64,000 nucleotides of DNA. Origin: Oceanithermus desulfurans. GTDB lineage: Bacteria; Deinococcota; Deinococci; Deinococcales; Marinithermaceae. Positions 2,411-63,977 of the stretch are shown here, in pieces. Within the stretch, counting starts at the first letter, position 1, and each line of letters begins with the position of its first letter. The position numbers and the translations under genes were made by a program. Location: contig NZ_JACHEZ010000010.1 in NCBI RefSeq assembly GCF_014201675.1, forward strand, positions 14,640 through 78,639, in the 5' to 3' direction. The notes under the pieces were generated by a model. The model had not been told where the DNA came from. It saw nothing but the letters and a program-made list of their open reading frames with translations, and did not search any database.

Positions 2411-2652
2411 ACCGGCGCAATTACAATGCGGAACTTATTACGGATGGACAATCCCCGGATGATAGCGGTAGAAGTATTCAAGGCACGTATAATTTTGGTT
2501 ATCACAACATATTTTGACAGCATATCAAAACCAAACTTTGATGTATCACAAATACGACACGGTGCATTCTTGTTGGCTCGTGGGTTCTATGAGTAGGACG
2601 GCGACTGCGATACCAAGGTTGAATACACTCAACCTTGATGCATATCACTCCT

Positions 2653-3669
2653 CTAGCTGTGTAGTCCGACCACGTTGTTCACACTAACCCCCAAGCGTGA
2701 GATCGGCGCCTGGTAGCCCAGGCTGCTGTGGGGGCGGTGCCAGTTGTAGTAGTGAAGCCACCGGGGAAGGCGGGCTGCCCGCTCCTCCGAGCTCTGGTAG
2801 ACGTGAGCATAAGCCCACTCACTCAGCAGGGTGCGGATGAAGCGTTCCACCTTCCCGTTCACCCTCGGCGTATAGGGCGGCGTGGTCCTGTGCCGGATGC
2901 CCAGCCACCGGAGCACCCTTTGGAAACGCTTGGATTGGAAGATCCGGGCGTTGTCGGTCATCACCGCCTGCACCCGGATGCCCAACCTCCGGTAGTGGCG
3001 GAGGGCAGAAAGCAGAAAGGCGACGGCGCTCTCTTTTCGCTCGTTCTCCTTCGTCTCCACGTAGGCCAGCCGGCTGTGGGCGTCCACCGCGGCGAAGACG
3101 AAGGCGTAGCCGGCCTTTGGTGAAGCCTGCCTCCTGTCCCCCGTCACCCGGTGCCCGGGGCTACGGAAGCGGGCCAGCTTCTTGGTGTCCAGGTGCAGGA
3201 GCACGCCGGGAGCCTTTACCTCGAAGCGCTTGGGCAGGGGCTTGGGTTCCAAAACAGAAAGGCGGTTCAGCCCCCGGGCCTTGAGGACACGAGCCACCGT
3301 ACTCTTGGAAAGGTTCAGCTTGAAAGCGATGGCGTGGTAGGTCCAGCGGCGCCTGCGGAGCTCGACGACCCGGCGGCGTAGACCCTCATGGGTTCTTCTT
3401 GGACTGCGGCAGGGACGTGAACTGCGGTCGTAGAGACCTGCTTCGCCTTCTTCACGAAAACGCCTGAGCCACTTGTAGGCCGTCCTCGGGCTCACCCCCT
3501 GGGCCTTGGCAACTTCCCTTACCGGCAGGCCCTCGTGGATAATACGAGACACAAGGATGCGTCTTCCCTCGAACGTTAGTCGCGCGTTCTTGTGGCTGTT
3601 CACTGGGGCTTGTCCCCGCGAAGGCGGGGGCCCCTCCTCTCGTGCCAAAAGCCATTCCTTCACAGGCAC
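2653..3669 (-). CDS. IS481-family DDE transposase
   Basis: 338 aa. N-terminal HTH ('RTAYKWLRRFREEG'), then an integrase-core DDE region ('HLDTKKL...', 'VMTDNARIF', 'YTPRVNGKVERF', 'YNWHRPHSSLG'). Confidence 0.9.
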   Translation of the reverse strand: MPVKEWLLAREEGPPPSRGQAPVNSHKNARLTFEGRRILVSRIIHEGLPVREVAKAQGVSPRTAYKWLRRFREEGEAGLYDRSSRPCRSPRRTHEGLRRRVVELRRRRWTYHAIAFKLNLSKSTVARVLKARGLNRLSVLEPKPLPKRFEVKAPGVLLHLDTKKLARFRSPGHRVTGDRRQASPKAGYAFVFAAVDAHSRLAYVETKENERKESAVAFLLSALRHYRRLGIRVQAVMTDNARIFQSKRFQRVLRWLGIRHRTTPPYTPRVNGKVERFIRTLLSEWAYAHVYQSSEERAARLPRWLHYYNWHRPHSSLGYQAPISRLGVSVNNVVGLHS

Positions 3670-3770: not shown

Positions 3771-5128
3771 TCCCAGTCGGTCACCGCCTGCTCGTAGGCC
3801 TTCCACTCGGTGCGGAAGAAGTGCAGGTAGTGGGCGTGCACCTCCTCGCCCAGCACCCGGCGGGCGAGCTCGCTGGCTTCGAAGAGGTCGGCGGCCTCGC
3901 GCAGGCTGTAGGGCACCCGCGGCAGCTCGGCCGCAGCGTAGACGTCGCCCTCGAAGATCGGCGGCGGCTCGATCCGCTGCTCGATGCCCGCGAGGCCGCT
4001 GGCCAGCATGGCGGTGTAGGCCAGGTAGGGGTTCGTGTCGGCTCCGGGGATGCGGTTTTCCACACGCAACGAAGCGCCCGCGCCGACGACCCGGAAGCCC
4101 GCAGTGCGGTTGTCGTAGCTCCAGGCCAGCCGCGTGGGGGCCCAGGAGGCGTCCTCGTAGCGCTTGTAGCTGTTCACGGTGGGGGCGTAGAAGACCATCC
4201 AGTCGGGGGCGAAACGGATCAGCCCGCCGAGGAAGTGCAGGAAGATCTCGGAGGCCTGGACGCGGCCGATGGACCGCTCGCCGGCAAAGGCGTTCTGCGC
4301 CTCGGCCCAGAGGCTCATGTGGATGTGGCTGCTCGAGCCCGCCTGGCCACCGGCGGGCTTGGCCATGAAGGTGACGCTCATCTCCTGCTGGTCGGCGATC
4401 TCCTTGAGCGCCTCCTTCATGAGCACGTGGCGGTCGGCCATCTCCAGGGCTTCGGTGTAGCGCAGGTTGAGCTCGTGCTGGCCCCGGCCCCACTCGCCCT
4501 TGGTGCTCTCGACGGGGATGCCGGCGTCGCGCAGGTCGCGCCGGGCGGCGGAGTGGAAGGCCTCGGTGCGCGAACCCTGGAAGACGTGGTAGTCCTCCAG
4601 GTACCAGCCCGCGGGCCGAAGGGCGGCGAAGCCGCGATCGGCAAACTCACGGTAAGGGGTCTCGAAGAGGTAGTACTCGAGCTCGGAGGCCGCCATGACG
4701 GCGAACCCCGCCTCGGCGGTGCGCGCCAGCTGCGCCCTCAGCAGGTTGCGCGGGGCCACGGGCACGGGCTCGTGGTTCGCGGTGCTCAGCACGTCGGCGA
4801 GGACGATTGCGCTGCTGGAGGTCCGGTGCCAGGTGGCGGGGCGCAGGGTGTCGAGGTCGGGCACCAGGTGGACGTCGCCGTAGCCGCGCTCCCAGTTGGC
4901 GAAGGCGTAGCCGGGCACCGGGTTCATCTCCATGTCCACGGTGAGCAGGTAGTCGCAGGCGTGGGTACCGGCGCGGGCGGCGGCCTCGAGGAAGAACTCG
5001 GCGTCGAAGCGTTTGCCCATCAGGCGTCCATAGAGGTCGGGGAAAGCGACGATGACGGTGTCGATCTCGCCCTCGGCCACCAGGCCGGCCAGGGCATCGA
5101 GCGTGAGTTTGCCGCGGGGGTGGGGCAT
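3743..5128 (-). CDS. Glutamine synthetase family protein (GlnA3/PuuA-like, about 460 aa)
   Basis: Motifs typical of the GS catalytic domain ('KPAGGQAGSSSHIHMSLW', 'NSYKRY', 'NRTAGFRV..ENRIPGADTNPYLA'). Confidence 0.85.
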   Translation of the reverse strand: MPHPRGKLTLDALAGLVAEGEIDTVIVAFPDLYGRLMGKRFDAEFFLEAAARAGTHACDYLLTVDMEMNPVPGYAFANWERGYGDVHLVPDLDTLRPATWHRTSSSAIVLADVLSTANHEPVPVAPRNLLRAQLARTAEAGFAVMAASELEYYLFETPYREFADRGFAALRPAGWYLEDYHVFQGSRTEAFHSAARRDLRDAGIPVESTKGEWGRGQHELNLRYTEALEMADRHVLMKEALKEIADQQEMSVTFMAKPAGGQAGSSSHIHMSLWAEAQNAFAGERSIGRVQASEIFLHFLGGLIRFAPDWMVFYAPTVNSYKRYEDASWAPTRLAWSYDNRTAGFRVVGAGASLRVENRIPGADTNPYLAYTAMLASGLAGIEQRIEPPPIFEGDVYAAAELPRVPYSLREAADLFEASELARRVLGEEVHAHYLHFFRTEWKAYEQAVTDWDRKRYFERI

Positions 5129-5267
5129 CTTGGCTCCTTTGGACCAGTATACCGCCCGGCGGGTTTTAGCCTTCCTTCAGCGTCAGCTGCCCGCAGGCCG
5201 CGCCCACGTCCATACCTTGGTCCCGGCGAACGGTCGTGGAGATCTCCCCTTCTCATCCCAAAACACG

Positions 5268-5280
5268 CTAGCCTGGCTAG
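5268..5280. promoter_or_regulatory. Perfect palindrome CTAGCC-T-GGCTAG about 25 nt upstream of the second antitoxin start; putative operator
   Basis: 6-1-6 inverted repeat read in the intergenic region between the GS-family gene and the second VapB. Confidence 0.35.
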
Positions 5281-5305
5281 ACTGGGTGTAGAGGTGAGGA
5301 ACATC

Positions 5306-5554
5306 ATGAGAAGCTGGTCGCTTCAGGACGCCAAGAACAAGTTCAGTGAGCTGGCCCGCCGCGCTGAGGTCGAGGGTCCCCAGTTCGTCACCCGGCACGG
5401 ACGTGAAGCCGTGGTGGTGGTTTCCGCAGCCGAGTTCCGGCGCCTGACGGCTCCGCGGGAAGACTTGGTCAGCTTTTTAGCGCATTCGCCGCTGGTCGGT
5501 GAGGGGTTGGAGATTGAGCGCGACGCCTCGCCCGCACGCGAACTGGAACTCTAG
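5306..5554 (+). CDS. vapB: Type II antitoxin (Phd/YefM / VapB-like), second TA pair
   Basis: 82 aa. 'MRSWSLQDAKNKFSELARRAEVEGPQFVTRHGREAVVVVSAAEF' is the canonical Phd/VapB N-terminus. It is the tail of an otherwise antisense artefact ORF (3821..5554). The stop overlaps the downstream start (TAGTG). Confidence 0.75.
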   Translation: MRSWSLQDAKNKFSELARRAEVEGPQFVTRHGREAVVVVSAAEFRRLTAPREDLVSFLAHSPLVGEGLEIERDASPARELEL

Positions 5555-5979: not shown

Positions 5980-7094
5980 CTTTCCTTCAGCGCCAGCTGC
6001 CCACAGGCCGCGCCCACGTCCACGCCGCGGCTCCAGCGGACCGAAACCGGAACCCCCGCCTCTTCGAGTGCGTGGGCGAAGCGCTGGATCCGCTTCCGGC
6101 CGCTGCCTTCCACCGGCGCGCCCTCCCAGGGGTTGAAGGGAATCAGGTTGACGTGGGCCACCAGGCCCTTCAGAATCCGGGCCAGCTCGCGGGCCTGCTC
6201 CTCGCGGTCGTTGACGCCCCGCAGCATGGTGTACTCGATCGTCACCCGCCGCTTGGTGCGGTCGAAGTAGGCCCGAACGGCGTCCATGATCTCGGCGATC
6301 GTGTAGCGGTGAGCCGTGGGGATGATCTTCTTCCGTGTCTCGTCGTCGGGGGCGTGCAGGCTGAGCGCCAGCTTGACCCCCAGGTCGTCCGCGGCCAGGC
6401 GCCGGATGCCGCGGGGAATACCCACGGTCGAGAGGGTGACGCGGCGGGGGCTCATGGCCAGGGCGCGCTTGTTCAGCATCCGCCGCACCGCCCAGGCGAC
6501 GTTCTCGTAATTGAGCAGCGGCTCGCCCATGCCCATCAGCACCACGTTGCGAATTTCACGGGGAGAAAGGCCCTGGTGGTAGGCCACGGCCAGGATCTGG
6601 TCGAGGATCTCGGGGCCCGTCAGGTTGCGGCCAAAGCCCATCTTGCCGGTGGCGCAGAAGCTGCAGCCGGCGGGGCAGCCCACCTGACTGGAGATGCAGA
6701 CGGTCTTGCGGTCGGCGTAGGGCAGGAAAACGGCCTCGGTGCGCTGGCCGTCGTGCAGGGTGAACAGGTACTTTACCGAGCCGTCGGCCGAAGGAAAGGC
6801 CTGCACCAGGGCGAACTCGCTGATGCGCCACTCGGCGGGCAGGGCCCCGCGCAGGCGGCGCGGCAGGTCGGTCATCTCGTCGAACTCGCGCGCCCCCTTC
6901 TTGTAAAGCCAGCTGGCGATCTGGTTCTTGCGGTAGCCCTTGCCGGGCAGCTCGTCCGGCGGCTCGGGCAGCAGAATAGGCCTGCGCTCGTCGGGCACCA
7001 CCGCCGCCTCGGGCGCCTGCGCGGGCACGTAGCAAGCCCCCCCGTCGGTCGGGGGTTCGTCTCGTTCGGTGCGGAAGGTAGGGCGTTCGTTCAT
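5976..7094 (-). CDS. rlmN: 23S rRNA (adenine2503-C2)-methyltransferase / tRNA m2A37 methyltransferase RlmN (radical SAM). The ORF as drawn probably over-extends the N-terminus
   Basis: '[26 protein letters not shown]' radical-SAM CxxxCxxC. '[12 protein letters not shown]' and '[10 protein letters not shown]' are RlmN signatures. Confidence 0.85.
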
Positions 7095-43228: not shown

Positions 43229-43302
43229 GCCTGTGGCCTGTAGCCTGTGGCCTGTGGAGATCCACGCGCGCAACCACGTGCTACAAGCCACAAGCTACAG
43301 GC
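43229..43302. repeat. Palindromic REP/MITE-like element: arms GCCTGTGGCCTGTAGCCTGTGGCCTGTGG and CTACAAGCCACAAGCTACAGGC around a 23-nt spacer
   Basis: About 19 of 22 arm positions can pair. The same CCACAGGC/TACAGGC motif family recurs at 49241-49401 and 49795-49823. Confidence 0.65.
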
Positions 43303-43313
43303 TGCCTTTAGCC

Positions 43314-44868: not shown

Positions 44869-45393
44869 TCACAGCTCCGGGAGTCTGCTGTTAATATCTT
44901 TTAATTCCGAGTAAAATTTTTTTGCTTTCTCTAGTCGCTCCGGTGTTGCTTTACGAGGCTTACGACGACTGGTTTCCTCCCAAGGGTCTTCGTACCCCTC
45001 TTCTTTTTTTAAATACAATGCTGTCGCCGCCAATTCTAGCGTGATGGAGTCTGTTTCATTCATTTTCTTTAGCAGTAAGTTTTGCTCATCAGCTTCGGTC
45101 GCATCATCAAGTGTCTTTTTAACTATTTCATATATTGAATATTTTCTCTTTCCATCAGCTGTTAGAGATTCAGTATGTTTGACTATACCCATTGCTGTTG
45201 CTATTTCAATGTGATTTGACAGATCTTCGCTGTATGGCCCATAGTGGAAGTATACATAGTCATAACCCATATCGATTCCGGCCGCCTCCATGATATAAAC
45301 CATTTTCTGAAGCCTAGTTTTACCTACGACTCTCCCACCTGCCTTCTCTATAATTGATACCACCTTCTTAGGGCTGATCACGGGTTTAATCAT
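44869..45393 (-). CDS. Panacea-domain (DUF4065, SocA/GepA-like) protein; putative antitoxin/immunity partner of the upstream HD protein
   Basis: 174 aa in the AT-rich island. 'GKTRLQKMVYIMEAAG...YVYFHYGPYSEDL' matches the Panacea 'T.LKLQKLLYYAQ...YGPV.PE.Y' core. Overlaps the HD gene by 4 nt (ATGA). Confidence 0.55.
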   Translation of the reverse strand: MIKPVISPKKVVSIIEKAGGRVVGKTRLQKMVYIMEAAGIDMGYDYVYFHYGPYSEDLSNHIEIATAMGIVKHTESLTADGKRKYSIYEIVKKTLDDATEADEQNLLLKKMNETDSITLELAATALYLKKEEGYEDPWEETSRRKPRKATPERLEKAKKFYSELKDINSRLPEL

Positions 45394-46835
45394 TTTGCCT
45401 CCTTGATCGCTTGCTCGACCGCACGTTTGGATATGTCCATTACTATACCATAACCATCATTGTCCCCCCTGTCTACGTAAGCCCTAAAAAGGTCCAACTT
45501 GTACGGCCTGGTGACTACAACAGGGGACTCTAATGCAATATCCTGTACTTCTCCATGCACATCCTCAATAAATATCTGACTAAAATTAGGAGTCTTGTTA
45601 TATTCATAGAGCTTTCGGGACTTGCCGTCTATTAATATTCTTGGTTGTTCTTTAGACAGTGCAGAATTGTATTGTTCAATTTCATTTATCACGTAGTTTT
45701 TTACGAGAGTGGATATACTAGGCATAATCTCATCAAATACACCTTTGTCTCTGAGCATTTGTTTTACTAATAGATGAATATCTATAGCTTTATATAAATT
45801 ACGTTCTAATAATTGCTTAGCTAATTTAGATATTCTTAGTATATCGGACTCTGCCAAGTAGTAGAGGCTATTCCAGAATACAGTGTCATCCAATTGCAGG
45901 ATGTTATCTATATTCTTAGGTTCGTTGACGAAATTGACATATTGGTGGTTCTCAGGTAAACCAAGCCTCTTGACGCCAGATGCTCCCTCACTTTTAATTA
46001 TCTTAAATACTTCGGTAAGCAAAGCGGTGAACATACTTTCTGCAGCACGAACTGCTTTATGAAAATACACAGTTGGATACAGCTGAAAAAGCGAGAGAAC
46101 ATAAGTTTCTGCAGCATATATAGCTTTTCTATTCAAAGTAAGCGTAGTTAGTTCGCTGTAACGCTCTCCGTCCTCAGAGTACAAAGGGATTATGCCGATC
46201 TCCATATTCGATAGCAGCCAGGTAAAGTCTATTGCGCTGTTCTGAATCCCTACCATAAGTCTATCCCGCTGCATGTAATCTAGGCGGTCTGCATCAAATT
46301 GACTCGATACAATAGCGTCATAGATATCCTCTGGCTCTTTGGAAATGACGTTTGCGACATCGTCAGGAAAGCCGCTACCCAGGCTTGATAACACGTCAGC
46401 AATCTCGCTATCCGTAATAAGTCGCCTACTTTTCTCCTCGTGGCTTATACTGTCTACCTTAGTAATAGCAAGCACATCTTCGAATGCATGACTGAACATA
46501 CCATGGCCAACATCGTGCAGCAAAGCTGCGGCCAGAACAATATTGGCCTTAGTAGCTGAAAAATTAATATCCAGTCTCCTTTTGATTATATTTATTAGTT
46601 TCCTTGCTATATGAAATGTTCCTATACTATGGATAAACCTAGTATGTGTGGCTCCAGGATACACAAGATCAGTAAAACCAAGCTGTTTGATTCTTCTGAG
46701 TCTTTGGAAGGGTCTAGTTTGAATGACTCTCCACATGTGGTATTCAAATTCTGTATTATCAAATTCAATTAGATTATGCACCGGATCTCTTATTCTCTGT
46801 GGTTTCCTCGTCACATGAATCGCCTCTGGTGTCAT
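45390..46835 (-). CDS. HD-domain dNTP triphosphohydrolase (dGTPase/SAMHD1-like) protein, 481 aa
   Basis: 'HTRFIHSIGTFHIARKL' (His), 'AALLHDVGHGMFSH' (HD motif), 'DADRLDYMQRDRLMVGI' (dGTPase/SAMHD1 catalytic Asp motif). About 38% GC versus about 68% for the flanks. Confidence 0.7.
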   Translation of the reverse strand: MTPEAIHVTRKPQRIRDPVHNLIEFDNTEFEYHMWRVIQTRPFQRLRRIKQLGFTDLVYPGATHTRFIHSIGTFHIARKLINIIKRRLDINFSATKANIVLAAALLHDVGHGMFSHAFEDVLAITKVDSISHEEKSRRLITDSEIADVLSSLGSGFPDDVANVISKEPEDIYDAIVSSQFDADRLDYMQRDRLMVGIQNSAIDFTWLLSNMEIGIIPLYSEDGERYSELTTLTLNRKAIYAAETYVLSLFQLYPTVYFHKAVRAAESMFTALLTEVFKIIKSEGASGVKRLGLPENHQYVNFVNEPKNIDNILQLDDTVFWNSLYYLAESDILRISKLAKQLLERNLYKAIDIHLLVKQMLRDKGVFDEIMPSISTLVKNYVINEIEQYNSALSKEQPRILIDGKSRKLYEYNKTPNFSQIFIEDVHGEVQDIALESPVVVTRPYKLDLFRAYVDRGDNDGYGIVMDISKRAVEQAIKEAK

Positions 46836-46900
46836 ATTACAAATGTAATAGCATGTTTAATGTTCATTTTCAACAGTGGTAACAGTGGTACAGTTGGTCC
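46836..46900 (-). promoter_or_regulatory. Putative promoter of the HD-Panacea operon (TTGAAA-17-TATTAC, about 9 nt before ATG) preceded by the tandem repeat TACCACTGT x2
   Basis: Read on the minus strand: '...tgtaccactgttaccactgTTGAAAatgaacattaaacatgcTATTACatttgtaatATG'. Confidence 0.35.
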
Positions 46901-47137
46901 TGGCACAGGCGCTCTTGTTCCCAAGGCTTTGCAGCGGAGAGTATTGCTAGAGGGCTTTGTTTTAGGCGCTCAGCTCACGGTGATAATAGCTGTACAAACG
47001 ATATAGCGCGCGGCTTAGATTGCTACATTGCTCGAGCTGAGTGCTGACCCATATCCCTAGTGTTAGACGCACGGAACTTACCATGCCACTCTTTGATTGT
47101 GAAGCGCGAAAGCCATAGACTGAAGGGGGAGGCCGCA

Positions 47138-47653: not shown

Positions 47654-47696
47654 ACCCGCTTGCCCGGGGCCCGCGGCCGCGGTTATAGTAAGCGCA

Positions 47697-47738
47697 ATGA
47701 AACGCTTCGCCGTTCGCTTCTGGTGGTGGCCCGGTTAA
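47697..47738 (+). CDS. trpL: trp operon leader peptide MKRFAVRFWWWPG (three consecutive Trp codons)
   Basis: 14-codon ORF with WWW. Followed by alternative hairpins sharing the self-complementary CCCGGGGCG segments and a terminator just upstream of trpE. Confidence 0.7.
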   Translation: MKRFAVRFWWWPG

Positions 47739-47765
47739 CCCCGGGGCGGACGGCCTGTGCTTGAT

Positions 47766-47800
47766 TCCCGGGGCGATGCACACCGGGAGTTTTTATTTTG
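47766..47800 (+). terminator. Attenuator terminator: TCCCGG...CCGGGA stem followed by GTTTTTATTTT
   Basis: Hairpin plus U-tract ending about 15 nt before the trpE start; an upstream CCCCGGGGCG copy can form the antiterminator. Confidence 0.65.
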
Positions 47801-47812
47801 CTTGCCAAGGAG

Positions 47813-49222
47813 ATGACGATGAAGACGAAACCCGTGGTCAAGACCCTGCTCGCCGATCTGGAAACGCCGGTGACCGCCTACCTGAAGCTGGCCGAGAAAG
47901 CGCCGGTAAGTTTCCTGCTCGAGTCGGTGGAGGCGGGCAAGCGCTGGAGCCGCTACTCGATCATCGGCGTCGGGGCCAGGCGCACCTTCCGGCTGAGGGA
48001 CGGCGCCTTCACCATCGACGGCACCGAGGTAAAGGCCGAGGACCCGCTGGCCACGCTCTACCACGCGGTGCATCGCGAGGTGGAAAACGGTCACGAGCTG
48101 CCGCCCTTCTGGGGCGGGGCGGTGGGCTACGTGGCCTACGACCTGGTGCGCTACTACGAAGAGCTGCCCGACGCCAACCCCGACGAGATCGGCGCGCCCG
48201 ACCTGCTCTTCGTCGAGCCCGAACTGGTGGTGGTCTTCGACCACCTGAAGCAGGTGCTGCACCTCGTGGCCCCGGCGCTGGGCGACGGCCCCTCGGCCGC
48301 CGCCCGCGCCCGGGAGCTGCTGGACGCCGCCGAGCGCAGGCTGCGGGGGCCGCTGCCGGGGGTGCCGGGCGGGCGCGGCGGGCGCAAGACCGCGTTCCGC
48401 GCTAACCTGAGCCCTGCGGACTACGCCCGCATCGTCGAAAAAAGCAAGGAGTACATCCGCGCCGGCGACATCTTCCAGGTGGTGCCCTCGGTGCGCTTCA
48501 CCGCCGAGCTGGGGGTGCACCCCTTCGCCCTCTACCGGGCGCTCAGGAGCGTCAACCCCAGCCCCTACATGGGCTACCTTGACCTGGGCGAGGTGACGCT
48601 CGTCTCGGCCAGCCCCGAGAGCCTGCTGCGCGCCGAAGGCCGCCGCGTGACCACCCGCCCCATCGCCGGCACCCGGCCGCGCGGGGCTACGCCCGAGGAG
48701 GACCGGGCGCTGGCCGAGGAGCTGCTGGCCGACGAGAAGGAGCGCGCCGAGCACGTGATGCTGGTGGACCTGAGCCGCAACGACCTCGGCCGGGTGGCCA
48801 AGCACGGAAGCGTTCGGGTGGAGGAGTTGATGCGGGTGGAGCATTACTCACACGTCATGCACATCGTCAGCACCGTGACCGGGGAGCTGGAAGAGGGCAA
48901 GACGCCGCTCGACGCGCTGGCGAGCGTGATTCCGATGGGCACGGTCAGCGGCGCGCCCAAGATTCGGGCGATGGAGATCATCGACGAACTCGAGCCCACC
49001 CGCCGCGGCCCCTACGGCGGCGCCTTCGGCTACATCGCCTACGACGGCGCCATGGACGTGGCGCTGACGCTGCGCACCTTCGTGATCGCCGGCGGCAAAG
49101 TGCACGTCCAGGCGGGGGCCGGCGTGGTGGCCGACAGCGACCCCGAGCGCGAGTACCAGGAGTGCGTGAACAAGGCGAAGGCGTTGATGAGAGCAGTCGA
49201 ATTGGCAGAGAAGGGGTTGTGA
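47813..49222 (+). CDS. trpE: Anthranilate synthase component I
   Basis: 'LLESVEAGKRWSRYS', 'GDIFQVVPS', 'SPESLLR...TRPIAGTRPRG', 'GAVGYIAYDGAMD'; 468 aa. Confidence 0.92.
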   Translation: MTMKTKPVVKTLLADLETPVTAYLKLAEKAPVSFLLESVEAGKRWSRYSIIGVGARRTFRLRDGAFTIDGTEVKAEDPLATLYHAVHREVENGHELPPFWGGAVGYVAYDLVRYYEELPDANPDEIGAPDLLFVEPELVVVFDHLKQVLHLVAPALGDGPSAAARARELLDAAERRLRGPLPGVPGGRGGRKTAFRANLSPADYARIVEKSKEYIRAGDIFQVVPSVRFTAELGVHPFALYRALRSVNPSPYMGYLDLGEVTLVSASPESLLRAEGRRVTTRPIAGTRPRGATPEEDRALAEELLADEKERAEHVMLVDLSRNDLGRVAKHGSVRVEELMRVEHYSHVMHIVSTVTGELEEGKTPLDALASVIPMGTVSGAPKIRAMEIIDELEPTRRGPYGGAFGYIAYDGAMDVALTLRTFVIAGGKVHVQAGAGVVADSDPEREYQECVNKAKALMRAVELAEKGL

Positions 49223-49240
49223 GGGTGGAAAGACGAATTA

Positions 49241-49401
49241 GCCTGTGGCTTGTAGCTTGTAGCTTGTGGAAAAACCATTCGATCAATCCCACAGGCTACG
49301 GGCCCCTGGCCACGGGCTCTTCTCGCTTGCGGCTTGTGACTCGTGGCTTGTGGAAAAACCATCCAATCGAGTCCGCAGACTACAAGCCACAGGCTACGGG
49401 C
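49241..49401. repeat. Two tandem copies (about 85 bp each) of the palindromic repeat family: GCYTGTRGCTYGTGG...CTTGTGGAAAAACCATYCRATC...CCRCAGRCTACRRGCCACAGGCTACGGGC
   Basis: Degenerate direct repeats with internal inverted symmetry, lying between trpE and the four-helix-bundle gene. Not exact, so not a CRISPR array. Confidence 0.6.
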
Positions 49402-49420
49402 CGTCCGTGGAGGTGTTTGA

Positions 49421-49783
49421 ATGCCTGAAAGCGTCGAAAACCTTCGCATCTGGCAGGAAGGTATGCAACTGGCCAAAGACATTTACCGGGCCTCGAGTTC
49501 CTGGCCCAAAGAAGAGGTTTATGGCTTAACTACCCAGGTGCGCCGGGCCGTTGTTTCCATTCCCGCCAACCTGGCCGAGGGCGTCGGCCGCGGCACGGCC
49601 GCCGAGCTTTCACGGTATTCGCGGATTGCACTGGGAAGCGCTTACGAATTGGGTACGCTGCTTAGGCTCGCGCGCGATTTTGGCTACTTGGCGCATGCAA
49701 ACTTCGAGGAACTGAACGTGCGCGTTTCGTCCCTTGCCAAGCAAATCTCCGCCTTCATCTCCTACCAGGAGGGCCGCAAATGA
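49421..49783 (+). CDS. Four-helix-bundle protein (23S rRNA intervening-sequence protein / Avd-like, TIGR02436 family)
   Basis: 120 aa. 'NLRIWQEGMQLAKDIYRASSSWPKEEVYGLTTQVRRAVVSIPANLAEGVGRGTAAE' is the family signature. Lies inside the trp operon; its stop overlaps the annotated trpG ATG. Confidence 0.75.
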   Translation: MPESVENLRIWQEGMQLAKDIYRASSSWPKEEVYGLTTQVRRAVVSIPANLAEGVGRGTAAELSRYSRIALGSAYELGTLLRLARDFGYLAHANFEELNVRVSSLAKQISAFISYQEGRK

Positions 49784-50475
49784 AAGGCAAGAAACCACAG
49801 GCCACAGGCCACGAGCTACAGGCTGAAGAGGTGCCCCCCACCTCCCACCCCCTATCCCCCGCCCCCCACCTCCTGCTCATCGACAACTACGACTCCTTCA
49901 CCTACAACCTCGCCGACTACCTGGGTCAGCTGGGGGCGCGGCTGACCGTCTGGCGCAACGACAAGTTCGCGCTCGAGGACGTGGAGCGGCTGGCCCCCGA
50001 CGCCGTGGTCATCTCGCCGGGACCGGGCACGCCCGAGGAGGCGGGGCTCTCGATCCCGCTCGTCCGGGAGTACGCCCCCAGGCTACCCATCCTCGGCGTC
50101 TGCCTGGGCCACCAGGCCATCGGCGCCGCCTTCGGCGCGAAGGTGGTGCCGGCACCGCGCATCATGCACGGCAAGACCAGCCCCATCGAGCACTCGGGGC
50201 AGGGCATCTTCATGGGGCTGCCCAACCCCTTCACCGCCACCCGCTACCACTCGCTGGTCATCGACGATCTGCCCGGCAAGCTCGAGGTGCTGGCCTGGAC
50301 GCCCGAGGAAGGGCAGCAGACCGTGCAGGCGGTGCGCCACGTGCGCTTCCCCACGGTCGGCGTGCAGTTCCACCCCGAGAGCATTCTCACCGAGCTGGGG
50401 CTGCAGCTCTTGGCCAACTGGCTCGGCGAGGTCGGGCTGTTCTGGAAGACCCACCCACGGGAGGAGGAGCAATGA
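49780..50475 (+). CDS. trpG: Anthranilate synthase component II (glutamine amidotransferase); true start possibly GTG at 49831
   Basis: 'LLLIDNYDSFTYNL', 'SPGPGTP', 'LGVCLGHQAI', 'HPES' are class-I GATase motifs. Confidence 0.9.
   Translation: MKGKKPQATGHELQAEEVPPTSHPLSPAPHLLLIDNYDSFTYNLADYLGQLGARLTVWRNDKFALEDVERLAPDAVVISPGPGTPEEAGLSIPLVREYAPRLPILGVCLGHQAIGAAFGAKVVPAPRIMHGKTSPIEHSGQGIFMGLPNPFTATRYHSLVIDDLPGKLEVLAWTPEEGQQTVQAVRHVRFPTVGVQFHPESILTELGLQLLANWLGEVGLFWKTHPREEEQ
49795..49823. repeat. Partial copy of the repeat (CCACAGGCCACAGGCCACGAGCTACAGGC) overlapping the annotated 5' end of trpG
   Basis: Same motif family. It encodes the 'KPQATGHELQAE' N-terminal extension if the ATG at 49780 is used. 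Confidence 0.55.
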
Positions 50476-51470
50476 ACGCGTTGCACAAGGTACTCGACGG
50501 CAAGACCCTGACCCAGGACGAAGCCCGGGCGCTGATGGGCCGGATGATGGCCGGCGAGCTCAGCCCGGTGCAGACGGCGGCGCTGCTCGCGGCGCTCAAG
50601 GTGCGCGGCGAAACGCCCGACGAGATCGCCGGCTTCGCCCACGCCATGCGCGAGGCGGCGCGGCCGGTGCAGGTGAAGGGCGAACTGGTGGACGTGGTGG
50701 GCACCGGCGGCGACGGCGCGGGCACCTTCAACATCTCGACCACCGTCGCCTTCGTGCTGGCGGCGGCGGGCCTGCGGGTCGCCAAGCACGGCAACCGCGC
50801 CGCCAGCTCCAAGAGCGGCTCGGCCGACCTGCTCGAGGCCCTGGGGGTGAACATCGAGCTGGAGCCAGAGCGGGTGGCCCGGGTGATCGAGGAGGTGGGC
50901 ATCGGCTTCCTCTTCGCCCGTACCCACCACCCGGCCATGCGCCACGTCGCCCCGGTGCGGGCCGAGCTGAAGACCCGCACCGTCTTCAACGTGCTGGGGC
51001 CGCTCACCAACCCGGCGCGGGCGCGGTACTTCCTGCTGGGCGTCTACGGCCCCGAACTGCTCGAGCCCATGGCCTACGCCCTGGCCGAACTGGGGGTGAA
51101 GGGGGCGTGGGTGGTCCATTCGCGCGGCACCGACGAGCTGACGTTGGGCGAAAACGAGGTGGTGGAGCTCCGGGACGGGCGCACCCGGCGCTTCAGCTTC
51201 CGCGCCGCCGACTACGGTCTGGAAGAGGCCCCGCTGGAAGCGCTGGCCGGGGGCACGCCCGAAGAGAACGCCGCGCTGACCCGCCGCATCCTCAGCGGCC
51301 AGGAAGCCGGGCCCAAGCGCGACGTGGTGGCGCTCAACGCCGCCGCCGCGCTGGTGGCCGCGGGCCGGGCCGCTGCGCTGGAAGAGGGGCTCGAGCAGGC
51401 GGGCAAGGTGCTGTACAGCGGCGCGGCGCTGGAGGTGCTCGAACGCCTGGTCGCGGCCACGCAGGGGTAA
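50472..51470 (+). CDS. trpD: Anthranilate phosphoribosyltransferase
   Basis: 'VDVVGTGGDGAGTFNISTTVAFVLAAAG', 'KHGNRAASSKSGSADLLEALG'; 332 aa. Confidence 0.92.
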   Translation: MNALHKVLDGKTLTQDEARALMGRMMAGELSPVQTAALLAALKVRGETPDEIAGFAHAMREAARPVQVKGELVDVVGTGGDGAGTFNISTTVAFVLAAAGLRVAKHGNRAASSKSGSADLLEALGVNIELEPERVARVIEEVGIGFLFARTHHPAMRHVAPVRAELKTRTVFNVLGPLTNPARARYFLLGVYGPELLEPMAYALAELGVKGAWVVHSRGTDELTLGENEVVELRDGRTRRFSFRAADYGLEEAPLEALAGGTPEENAALTRRILSGQEAGPKRDVVALNAAAALVAAGRAAALEEGLEQAGKVLYSGAALEVLERLVAATQG

Positions 51471-58913: not shown

Positions 58914-58983
58914 GGGAAGTGGGGTGTGGGAAGTGGGGTGTGGGAAGCCTGTGCCTACCTCCCACCTCCCACCTCCCACCTCC
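58914..58983. repeat. G-rich tandem repeat (GGGAAGTGGGGTGT x2 + GGGAAG) facing a C-rich repeat (CCTCCCA x4) in the 107-nt spacer that splits fdsA
   Basis: Read directly. The two halves are partially complementary (hairpin or G4/i-motif potential). The spacer length shifts the frame by +2. Confidence 0.6.
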
Positions 58984-63255: not shown

Positions 63256-63977
63256 CTACCCGTCCTTCCGGGCGAGCGGCCACCCGGCCCCGAGGCCCCG
63301 GATCCAGTCCGGGGCAGATTCGGAATCTTGACGTGCCACGAAATCCGTCCTTCCGGACGAGGGGGCCACGCGGCCCCCGAGATCCAGAATCTTAAAGTGC
63401 GCCGCTAAGGGACCGGTGACTCGCAATGCGGACGGTGACGACAGCCCGTCGGTTCCTTCGTAACCCGCAGCCACGACAAGATCCCCGATCCCGGCGCTTT
63501 GCGCCTCGTCGGGGATGACGAAATAAGGGGCTAGGGGATGTAAGGGGTGGGGTGTAGGGGACGAATAAGGCGGAGGAAACCAAGGAGGCGCGCAAGCACC
63601 GGGTCTTCGCGGCTTTGGGACGGCGAAGAAAAGGCTGGCGGGCTTGCAGCCGCTGCCTGTTGGCCCTGCCGCTCTTCTCTCCAGCTCCTGTACGCTTGCC
63701 GCCCACCATCTACCAAATACTACGTACCTCGTACCACGTACCGCCGTCATCCGTCATTCCGGGCGAGCCGACCCCTGGGTTGGCGAGACCCGGAATCTAA
63801 ATAGTTGCGGATGCGATGTCGGTCACTTGATGAATGGAAGGTGACGACGGCGCCGGTTCGTTTTGGCGTACGTAGCCACGACAAGATCCCCGATCTCGAC
63901 GCTTCGCGCCGCGTCGGGGATGACGAACAATAGGGCGGGTGGTCGGTCACGGCATGGACCCCGGCTCGCGGGCGCAA
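63256..63977. repeat. Repeat-rich non-coding region: two about 95-bp 'B' repeats (63436-63531, 63841-63940; GTGACGACRGC..AGCCACGACAAGATCCCCGATC..CGTCGGGGATGACGAA) and three degenerate 'A' repeats (63261, 63347, 63752; CGTCmTTCCGGGCGAG..GGCC..CGGAATCT)
   Basis: Direct comparison of the sequence; each B unit contains a conserved 8-bp-stem hairpin ATCCCCGA...TCGGGGAT. The only ORFs present are short high-GC artefacts. Confidence 0.6.

Follow-up and report, generated by a model that had tools for sequence, protein, structure and literature searches.

Intervening sequences (IVSs) that carry an S23p open reading frame (ORF) have been known for approximately 30 years as oddities of 23S rRNA. Here we describe a 64,000-nt stretch of the Oceanithermus desulfurans contig NZ_JACHEZ010000010.1 (the window), in which a gene of the S23p family, encoding a four-helix-bundle (4HB) protein, lies between trpE and trpG and is bracketed by arrays of 7-nt repeats. 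We consider it fairly likely that this gene and its repeats are an rRNA-IVS-type cassette that has become fixed in the trp operon, has no promoter of its own, and is translationally coupled to trpG.

23S IVSs with an S23p ORF have been reported in Leptospira, Coxiella burnetii, Brucella and Xanthomonas (PMC4990558). In the Coxiella IVS, RNase III cuts a terminal stem of 28 bp; the S23p ORF occupies the loop and is preceded by GACAGAT heptamers, two or three depending on the strain (PMC4990558). The S23p protein of X. campestris is cited as a homopentameric toroid (PMC4990558). Tandem heptamers are also known as dispersed intergenic repeats. X. campestris contains 186 GGGAATC arrays, mostly of four units, with 70 inverted pairs, mostly between co-oriented genes (Rehm et al. 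2015, PMC4692102). That study, which treated GGGAATC as a G-quadruplex repeat, found that GGGGAYT of Nostoc also occurs as inverted heptameric repeats; it does not mention a four-helix-bundle gene (PMC4692102).

The genes of the trp operon follow one another on the forward strand of the window in the order trpE, 4HB, trpG, trpD, with these signals between them:

ORF opening at 47798, probable start 47819, end 49222, forward strand: trpE, anthranilate synthase component I (TIGR00564, 564 bits)
49409 to 49413, forward strand: Shine-Dalgarno (SD) sequence GGAGG of the 4HB gene, 7 nt ahead of its ATG
49421 to 49783, forward strand: 4HB gene, PF05635/TIGR02436, S23p family, 120 amino acids (aa), assigned by profile match
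49767 to 49773, forward strand: SD sequence AGGAGGG for trpG, inside the last 4HB codons (YQEG)
49780 to 50475, forward strand: trpG, with an ATGA overlap at its start and the glutamine amidotransferase (GATase) domain from residue ~30
50472 to 51470, forward strand: trpD, overlapping the trpG stop

The trpE start at 47819 fits the length of orthologues. The 4HB stop codon TGA (49781-49783) overlaps an ATG at 49780, giving ATGA at 49780-49783. An earlier note on this DNA had recognized a gene of this family between trpE and trpG, with its stop overlapping the first ATG of the trpG ORF, and the profile matches, the gene order and the ATGA agree with it on each point. The 4HB protein matched PF05635 with an E-value of 3.7e-33 (114.4 bits; cut-off 33.8), its sole Pfam match, and TIGR02436 with 108 bits (cut-off 24). 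Two contigs, including one of assembly GCA_007991015.1, carry the identical 120-aa protein, and orthologues at 96, 91 and 76% identity are on record. A sequencing artefact is therefore an improbable source of the ORF, whose disruption on resequencing the earlier note had named as grounds for dropping its reading.

We found heptamer arrays on both sides of the 4HB gene:

49240 to 49318, forward strand: hairpin A (-46.4 kcal/mol), in which a 19-nt loop separates four GCYTGTR heptamers (5' arm) from four CCACAGG-like ones (3' arm)
49325 to 49402, forward strand: hairpin B, a second tandem copy that has diverged from hairpin A (77% identity; -34 kcal/mol)
49795 to 49824, forward strand: downstream arm, whose four CCACAGG-type heptamers are complementary to both upstream 5' arms (A and B)
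49834 to 49874, forward strand: second array, of the CCCACCT/CCCCCCA type, with periods 7 and 21, unpaired at this locus

Hairpins A and B make up two 84-nt units (49241-49317 and 49325-49401) between trpE and the 4HB ORF, both built from four GCTTGTR heptamers, a loop of 19 nt and four heptamers resembling CCACAGG, and hairpin A is kept in three loci of the window's lineage (L002, L004 and L006). The downstream arm forms codons 6-15 of the trpG ORF, read as PQATGHELQA, and is 80% complementary over its 30 nt (49795-49824) to the 5' arm of hairpin A (49240-49269). Repeats flanking the gene and a repeat-encoded N-terminus of the trpG ORF had both been proposed before; we now resolve them into two hairpins upstream and one complementary arm downstream. 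The complement of the second array type (49834-49874) serves as the upstream arm in another allele, L171.

The arms upstream and downstream of the ORF are predicted to pair with each other at least as well as they pair locally. The calculated energies of duplexes between the downstream arm and the 5' arms of hairpins A and B are -50.8 and -43.7 kcal/mol, equal to or better than those of the local hairpins, and in the minimum-energy fold of 49215-49880 it is hairpin B whose 5' arm joins the downstream arm, so that the ORF is enclosed. The locus resembles a 23S IVS in several ways. Terminal inverted repeats would give a stem of at least 20 bp around the ORF (~28-30 bp, as in the rRNA elements), a PF05635 protein is encoded in the loop, tandem heptamers of variable copy number lie 5' of it, and the element lacks a detectable promoter of its own and is part of the host transcript. 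It differs from the 23S elements in that it lies between protein genes and not in 23S helix 9, 25 or 45, in that it is coupled to the downstream gene with its 3' arm translated as part of TrpG, and in that extra complete hairpins stand upstream. In addition, its ORF is under purifying selection (below), whereas the Coxiella ORF is reported to be decaying. No Rfam family, rRNA included, matched anywhere in the window at gathering thresholds.

The same arrays resemble the dispersed repeats GGGAATC and GGGGAYT and the cyanobacterial STRR repeats (reportedly those of Mazel et al., 1990). All consist of approximately four 7-nt units in intergenic positions between co-oriented genes, often as convergent stem-loop pairs, and all keep their position and vary in length between relatives. 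The earlier studies did not connect such repeats with four-helix-bundle genes, but the inverted pair here, like one between accB and accC of Xanthomonas (below), encloses a PF05635 ORF; and unlike GGGAATC and GGGGAYT, the window heptamers are not G-quadruplex formers.

Based on these features we suggest how the element might work. The cassette would consist of an S23p-family 4HB ORF that has a ribosome-binding site of its own and stands at an intercistronic junction, between inverted arrays of approximately four heptamers each. Having no detectable promoter, it would be co-transcribed from the attenuated trp promoter. In the trp transcript a 5' arm could fold back within its own hairpin (A or B) or else pair with the downstream arm, giving a ~30-bp stem that encloses the 4HB ORF. 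RNase III might then cut this stem and separate the trpE, 4HB and trpGD RNAs; we add this step by analogy with the IVSs of Coxiella, Leptospira and Salmonella, and regard it as somewhat doubtful. The cassette would be tolerated since it restores translational coupling to the downstream gene, and would be retained because its loss would remove the trpG SD and start codon unless precisely repaired. The 4HB protein is probably, like its solved relatives, a nucleic-acid-binding homopentamer, and would act on the repeat arrays or on RNA carrying them, not on tryptophan synthesis.

The sequence upstream of trpE contains the elements of a transcription attenuator:

47660 to 47689, forward strand: promoter-like site TTGCCC-18-TATAGT, by consensus match only
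47698 to 47739, forward strand: ORF of the trp leader peptide MKRFAVRFWWWPG, which includes three consecutive Trp codons (WWW, 47722-47730)
about 47763 to 47800, forward strand: attenuator terminator, a GC hairpin UUCCCGGGG...CCGGGAG followed by the T-run UUUUUAUUUU, by RNA folding

A tandem-Trp leader is thus followed by an intrinsic terminator ahead of trpE, as in trpL-type attenuation of E. coli, where a short leader of this kind also precedes a terminator hairpin and T-run upstream of trpE. In Thermaceae, Thermus and Deinococcus, homologous peptides (...RFWWWPG, ...WWPG) are encoded 72-98 nt ahead of trpE, and the Trp leader is kept in 13 related loci. Attenuation is the context of the cassette and not part of it. 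A simple scan between trpE and trpD found no promoter- or terminator-like site, which makes read-through from trpE the simplest account of 4HB transcription. The leader MKRFAVRFWWWPG, the terminator and the lack of an internal promoter-like site support the co-transcription with an attenuation-controlled operon that had been proposed before.

We found that trpG most probably owes its start codon to the cassette junction. We compared the trpG start in nine loci that have a 4HB gene at the trpE/trpG junction. The ATG that overlaps the 4HB stop was in frame with the DNYD motif of TrpG in all of them (9/9), even though the distance from this ATG to DNYD took six values (30, 54, 81, 90, 102 and 132 nt). 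Close alleles differ by 21 or 42 nt (21 = 3 x 7), the sole multiples of 7 that preserve the frame. Five of the nine loci have no other in-frame ATG, GTG or TTG. Because the ATG stays in frame in 9/9 loci over six spacings, and five loci lack an alternative, we conclude from the comparison that the trpG start is the ATG at 49780. The earlier note had favored a GTG at approximately 49831 as the native start. That codon is absent in L004 and L171 and is therefore dispensable, while the ATG is kept with a strong SD, and the GTG assignment is not supported.

The predicted N-terminal peptide of TrpG from the ATG at 49780 is MKGKKPQATGHELQ..., and the tail encoded by heptamers, which ranges from 9 to 43 residues across loci, here comprises residues 1-29, MKGKKPQATGHELQAEEVPPTSHPLSPAPH. 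Annotation of these genomes should accordingly begin trpG at the overlapping ATG, with its repeat-encoded tail. The arrangement of signals also shows that trpG translation depends on the cassette, because the last 4HB codons carry the SD and the 4HB stop overlaps the trpG ATG. The AGGAGGG is kept in all window-type loci, including L002, where the 4HB stop comes 12 nt earlier: this allele (91% identical) has a TAG five codons early (6343-6348) and encodes 115 aa, with the trpG SD and ATG unchanged. At the other end of the gene, the GTGGAGG that joins the last heptamer to the 4HB SD is also present in L007, L010 and L172. Such a cassette can become structurally indispensable once an essential biosynthetic enzyme takes its ribosome-binding site, start codon and N-terminal tail from it.

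Many members of the subfamily end in ...YQE(G/S/N)xx (alignments A1 and A2), and the codons TAC CAG GAG G.. double as the downstream SD. Because they do, part of the apparent conservation of the C-terminus of the protein may reflect a conserved translation signal. We had also considered that the 3' end of the 4HB gene might be a duplicated trpE 3' end (a target duplication). This was rejected, as the YQEG/SD ending is common to the subfamily in unrelated operons.

The association of PF05635 genes with heptamer arrays is not peculiar to the trp operon. We retrieved 80 diverse metagenomic PF05635 genes (36-60% identity) from several phyla and analyzed 79 of them. An array was defined as a four-unit tandem of period 7 or 8 with at least 80% self-match, within 120 nt of the gene. 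Such arrays were found upstream of 33/74 PF05635 genes and downstream of 22/76. In contrast, only 7/251 and 6/251 control ORFs on the same contigs had an array upstream and downstream, respectively. The enrichment at PF05635 flanks over neighboring ORFs was about 15 times. No array with any other period from 5 to 11 scored at these flanks. With the self-match lowered to 75%, arrays were found at 58/79 genes.

The two flanks formed inverted repeats in 48 of 71 loci (above the 95th percentile of controls; p 2.5e-19). Median distances were 30 nt from the end of the upstream arm to the start codon and 6 nt from the stop to the beginning of the downstream arm. The upstream arm was G+T-rich on the sense strand in 38/48 loci. 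Both neighbors were co-oriented with the 4HB gene in 33/48 loci, a moderate enrichment based on crude gene calls. The survey indicates that PF05635 genes of different phyla share an IVS-like architecture, whether they stand in operon junctions or, in one case, in a 23S IVS.

Individual loci illustrate the range of contexts. L123 (about 2890-3450) is a 23S rRNA IVS with a PF05635 ORF and arms of GGGAAGTGAGAGG-type heptamers, and its upstream flank is, by eye, the 23S helix-45 region. In X. campestris (L176, 1925-2372) the accB-accC junction holds a homolog of the crystallized protein XCC0516 (86% identity), bracketed by four GGGAATC units and an inverted array. A PF05635 cassette lies just after trpG in a member of the Chloroflexota (L025). 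Cassettes with the same ATGA coupling occur in sugar-nucleotide operons, next to LbH/DegT genes or UDP-glucose dehydrogenase/epimerase genes. One such operon (L169) has two 150-aa PF05635 cassettes in two of its junctions (2614-3066 and 5067-5519); at the first, the downstream array is read as a C-terminal extension of the 4HB protein and not as an N-terminal tail of the next gene. We rejected a recent duplication as the source of this pair, since the genes and the heptamers are different. L157 is flanked by GGGGACT/CCCCAGT arrays, and GGGGACT is presumably the cyanobacterial STRR1 repeat. The arrays at L125 are of GGGTTTA, the same as the plant-type telomere unit, presumably by coincidence.

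Heptamer sequences varied widely among lineages and were shared within a genome. Among arrays more than 300 nt away on the same contig, 12/20 were within one mismatch of the heptamer flanking the 4HB gene, compared with 2.5% across contigs. This comparison shows that the heptamers at a 4HB gene belong to a dispersed heptamer family of the same genome. The window has two further members without an ORF:

43229 to 43310, forward strand: ORF-less hairpin of the CCTGTGG/CCACAGG family, in the spacer that separates a Band_7 gene from a small RHH gene
58914 to 58983, forward strand: ORF-less hairpin with a GGGAAGT/GGGGTGT arm against an ACCTCCC arm, between ferredoxin-type and molybdopterin oxidoreductase genes

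The hairpin at 43229 is of the same heptamer family as that at 49240. Strict period-7 arrays number 3 in the window versus 0.05 in shuffled sequence (~60 times), and the hairpin-loop word occurs twice versus 0.01 expected. On the transcribed strand, both ORF-less hairpins have a G/T-rich 5' arm and a C/A-rich 3' arm. By eye, their loops showed no convincing similarity to the cassette ends. A lone TACCACG array lies near 63718-63742.

These results raise the alternative, unlikely in our judgment, that the 4HB protein is a trans-acting factor that creates, spreads or maintains the dispersed hairpins, in the way that RAYT proteins relate to repetitive extragenic palindromic (REP) sequences. The copy in the trp operon would then be a master element in its own hairpin, and the hairpins at 43229 and 58914 its non-autonomous derivatives. 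As in REP/REPIN systems with their RAYT genes, inverted copies of a dispersed intergenic repeat stand on both sides of a single-copy gene (Bertels and Rainey 2011, PMC3116915), the repeat here being of the family found elsewhere on the contig (43229 versus 49240 in the window, 12/20 in the survey). The homolog of XCC0516 is flanked by GGGAATC, a repeat that its genome carries at 186 sites, with 70 inverted pairs (PMC4692102). Further support comes from purifying selection on the ORF, from eleven invariant residues that resemble an active or binding site more than a scaffold (below), and from the swapping of heptamer families at orthologous sites of close relatives. The flanks of L157, which we take to be STRR1, point in the same direction.

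There are differences, however. RAYT is an HUH Y1 transposase and REPs are single palindromic units, not tandem heptamer arrays (PMC3116915). The 4HB protein is a small helical bundle whose sole Pfam match is PF05635; it has no known nuclease, recombinase or polymerase fold or motif, and Avd, its closest characterized relative, is an accessory protein. Near-identical proteins are found with different heptamers (the window and L171, 72% identical; the mixed arms of L010), which argues against sequence-specific recognition. We caught no mobility event, the two cassettes of L169 being different genes. Nor did the repeat period closely follow the protein. The nearest-neighbor protein shared the period (7 or 8) in 50/58 cases, compared with about 38 expected, but mean identities within and between period classes were nearly equal and one 64%-identical pair differed, so that the link of period to protein phylogeny is weak. 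The broader notion that S23p proteins are the missing partner of dispersed heptamer and octamer hairpins (STRR, GGGAATC and those of Thermaceae), as RAYT is to REPIN, seems to us rather improbable as well, if marginally less so. If it were true, the pentamer would bind the arrays with approximately one heptamer per subunit and drive their formation, spread or turnover, and both rRNA IVSs and operon-embedded cassettes would be the autonomous copies of heptamer hairpins.

We compared the trpE/trpG junction among marine Thermaceae metagenome-assembled genomes (MAGs), 'Deinococcota bacterium DY0809b', Thermus, Meiothermus and Deinococcus carri. Thermus has a bare trpE-ATGA-trpG junction without a cassette, which we take as the native state into which the cassette was inserted. 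In a Meiothermus MAG (L018, 5413-6095) a different gene occupies the junction, with the HIT-like motif HYHVHVFPR recognized by eye and ATGA on both sides. Because of this gene, it appears that the junction has accepted unrelated insertions, each preserving translational coupling. The cassette is present in the lineage of the window (L002, L004, L006 and L171; 4HB 72-96% identical), in L007 and L008 (TrpE 90-94% identical, 4HB only 48%, arms CGTGGTR and not CCTGTGG), in L010, L011 and L172 (TrpE 77-78%, 4HB 45-58%), and in Deinococcus carri (L174, arms GCGGTRC). Heptamer repeats accompany it in every lineage that carries it.

Because this layout recurs in several marine Thermaceae lineages, with TrpE identity down to 77%, and in Deinococcus carri, the trpE-4HB-trpG linkage appears to be old, or else to have been re-established repeatedly at one spot. 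A recent repeat-mediated insertion, which the earlier note had implied, does not fit a trpE-4HB-ATGA-trpG order of this breadth, and the cassette is better described as an IVS type fixed in an operon. That note had also reasoned that relatives with the gene and without the repeats would indicate ancestral linkage; the linkage does appear to be old, but the repeats were always present.

By this comparison, the cargo and arms of the cassette change much more rapidly than the genes around them. A neighbor-joining tree grouped the window-type 4HB with proteins from other contexts and not with its positional counterpart in L007. The 4HB allele of L004 is a mosaic, with a synonymous divergence of 0.93 versus 0.28 for the adjacent trpE. 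In L171 the upstream arm is of the GGGAGGT type, and the 4HB is 72% identical to that of the window. At the Band_7/RHH spacer, the window has a CCTGTGG hairpin and L002 a CGTGGTR hairpin at the orthologous site.

The conserved position might also suggest a regulator specific to trp, a ring protein that binds heptamers in trp mRNA, as TRAP or HutP bind their targets, and tunes trpG translation or the TrpE:TrpG ratio. The linkage kept in Deinococcus and marine Thermaceae, the purifying selection on the ORF, the repeats at the trpG translation start, and the geometrically suggestive match (our inference) of a pentameric toroid to ~4-5 heptamers per arm are all consistent with this. However, the subfamily shows the same ATGA coupling in unrelated operons (LbH/DegT, UDP-glucose dehydrogenase/epimerase, accB/accC), and the cassette type also occurs in 23S rRNA. 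Thermus and Meiothermus run the same attenuated operon without a 4HB gene. In addition, 4HB alleles are 42-53% identical where TrpE is 77-94%, a divergence not expected of a dedicated partner. We consider such a regulator quite unlikely.

The fold of the 4HB protein points to the S23p proteins. The AlphaFold monomer model has four helices and a pLDDT of 96.5. With Foldseek, this model matched XCC0516 of Xanthomonas (2GSC) with a template modeling (TM) score of 0.86-0.96 and 35-37% identity, and BT_0352 (2RLD) with a TM score of about 0.8-0.9; phmmer matched the protein to 2GSC with an E-value of 2.8e-19. The entries 2GSC, 2RLD and 4DWL each have chains A-E, while the window protein was modeled as a monomer. 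The likeness to Avd (4DWL, 8UB7) was at the level of the fold, with TM scores of 0.75-0.85 and 10-13% identity.

That likeness raises the question of a diversity-generating retroelement (DGR) remnant or a stand-alone Avd accessory protein. Avd shares the four-helix-bundle fold, its solved relatives are pentameric, it works in a nucleic-acid-handling complex, and Avd-like proteins match PF05635 (PMC10053308). However, identity to Avd is far below the 35-37% to XCC0516. The earlier note had proposed a search of the genome for reverse transcriptase; among the genes called within 10 kb on each side of the 4HB gene, no RVT family was found. The heptamer arrays are the sole repeats at the locus, with no template/variable repeat (TR/VR) pair of ~100 bp, and the protein has no match in PADLOC or PHROGs, which also means no sign of a role in defense or in phage. 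We therefore rejected a DGR part at this locus, and regard the general idea as highly improbable.

The 4HB protein is under purifying selection, as shown by the dN/dS of its ORF, 0.13-0.26 among four alleles. Eleven alignment columns, mostly polar, are invariant: W11, P29, E32, Q39, R41, R42, S46, N50, E53, G54 and E76. The ORF is full length in every lineage examined, apart from the early TAG of the L002 allele, and its strong SD is kept at ideal spacing. All of this argues against the view that the ORF is a relic, a decaying neutral passenger of RNA hairpins that alone matter, as REP-like mRNA stabilizers or processing sites. Such decay has a precedent in Coxiella, where the S23p ORF is degenerating and probably untranslated (PMC4990558), and the early TAG of L002 and the ORF-less hairpins in other operon spacers would fit it. 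We nevertheless hold this view to be very unlikely.

Several results weigh against the IVS-type reading that we favor, in particular against the part played by an RNA stem. RNase III cleavage in this organism is an analogy. Mismatches in the arms were not biased toward G.U: in the 48 inverted repeats we counted 41 sense G.U and 53 A.C mismatches (p 0.26), and 61 transversions. The strand preference of the folds was mixed across loci. The sense strand was favored in 7/7 orthologous hairpins of the trp locus, which are not independent of each other, and the antisense strand by the ORF-less hairpins and by the arms of L007, L008 and Deinococcus. Because stability is divided between the strands in this way, the arms may function as DNA and not as a stem in RNA. 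The long-range stem may also form rarely, because the complete local hairpins precede the ORF and fold first during transcription. In L010 the two arms are of different heptamer families and are unable to pair. A cut in the downstream arm would strip the trpG start codon from the mRNA, which would harm the host. Finally, occupation of the same junction from Deinococcus to Thermaceae could reflect a host function.

If the element is an IVS-type cassette, this type of cassette also lives in ordinary operons and can persist there for very long periods. In the accessible literature, our coverage of which was incomplete, we found no paper that connects PF05635 genes to heptamer arrays at their flanks, and no description of the association across several phyla. 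The association ties together three puzzles that were published separately, the S23p/Avd-like proteins, the IVS stems and the over-representation of heptameric repeats. The link between S23p and heptamers is the part likely to surprise specialists, and it is testable in the tractable Xanthomonas and Deinococcus.

The region upstream of the trp operon also differs among relatives. In the window, a low-GC island (45000-47000; 38-42% GC versus about 70%) contains a minus-strand gene for a 481-aa HD-domain protein (45390-46835). This gene is absent from the orthologous region of L002, and L004 has a PIN/PSK toxin-antitoxin pair just upstream of trpE in place of the island. Because of these differences we suggest that the region is variable and probably horizontally acquired.

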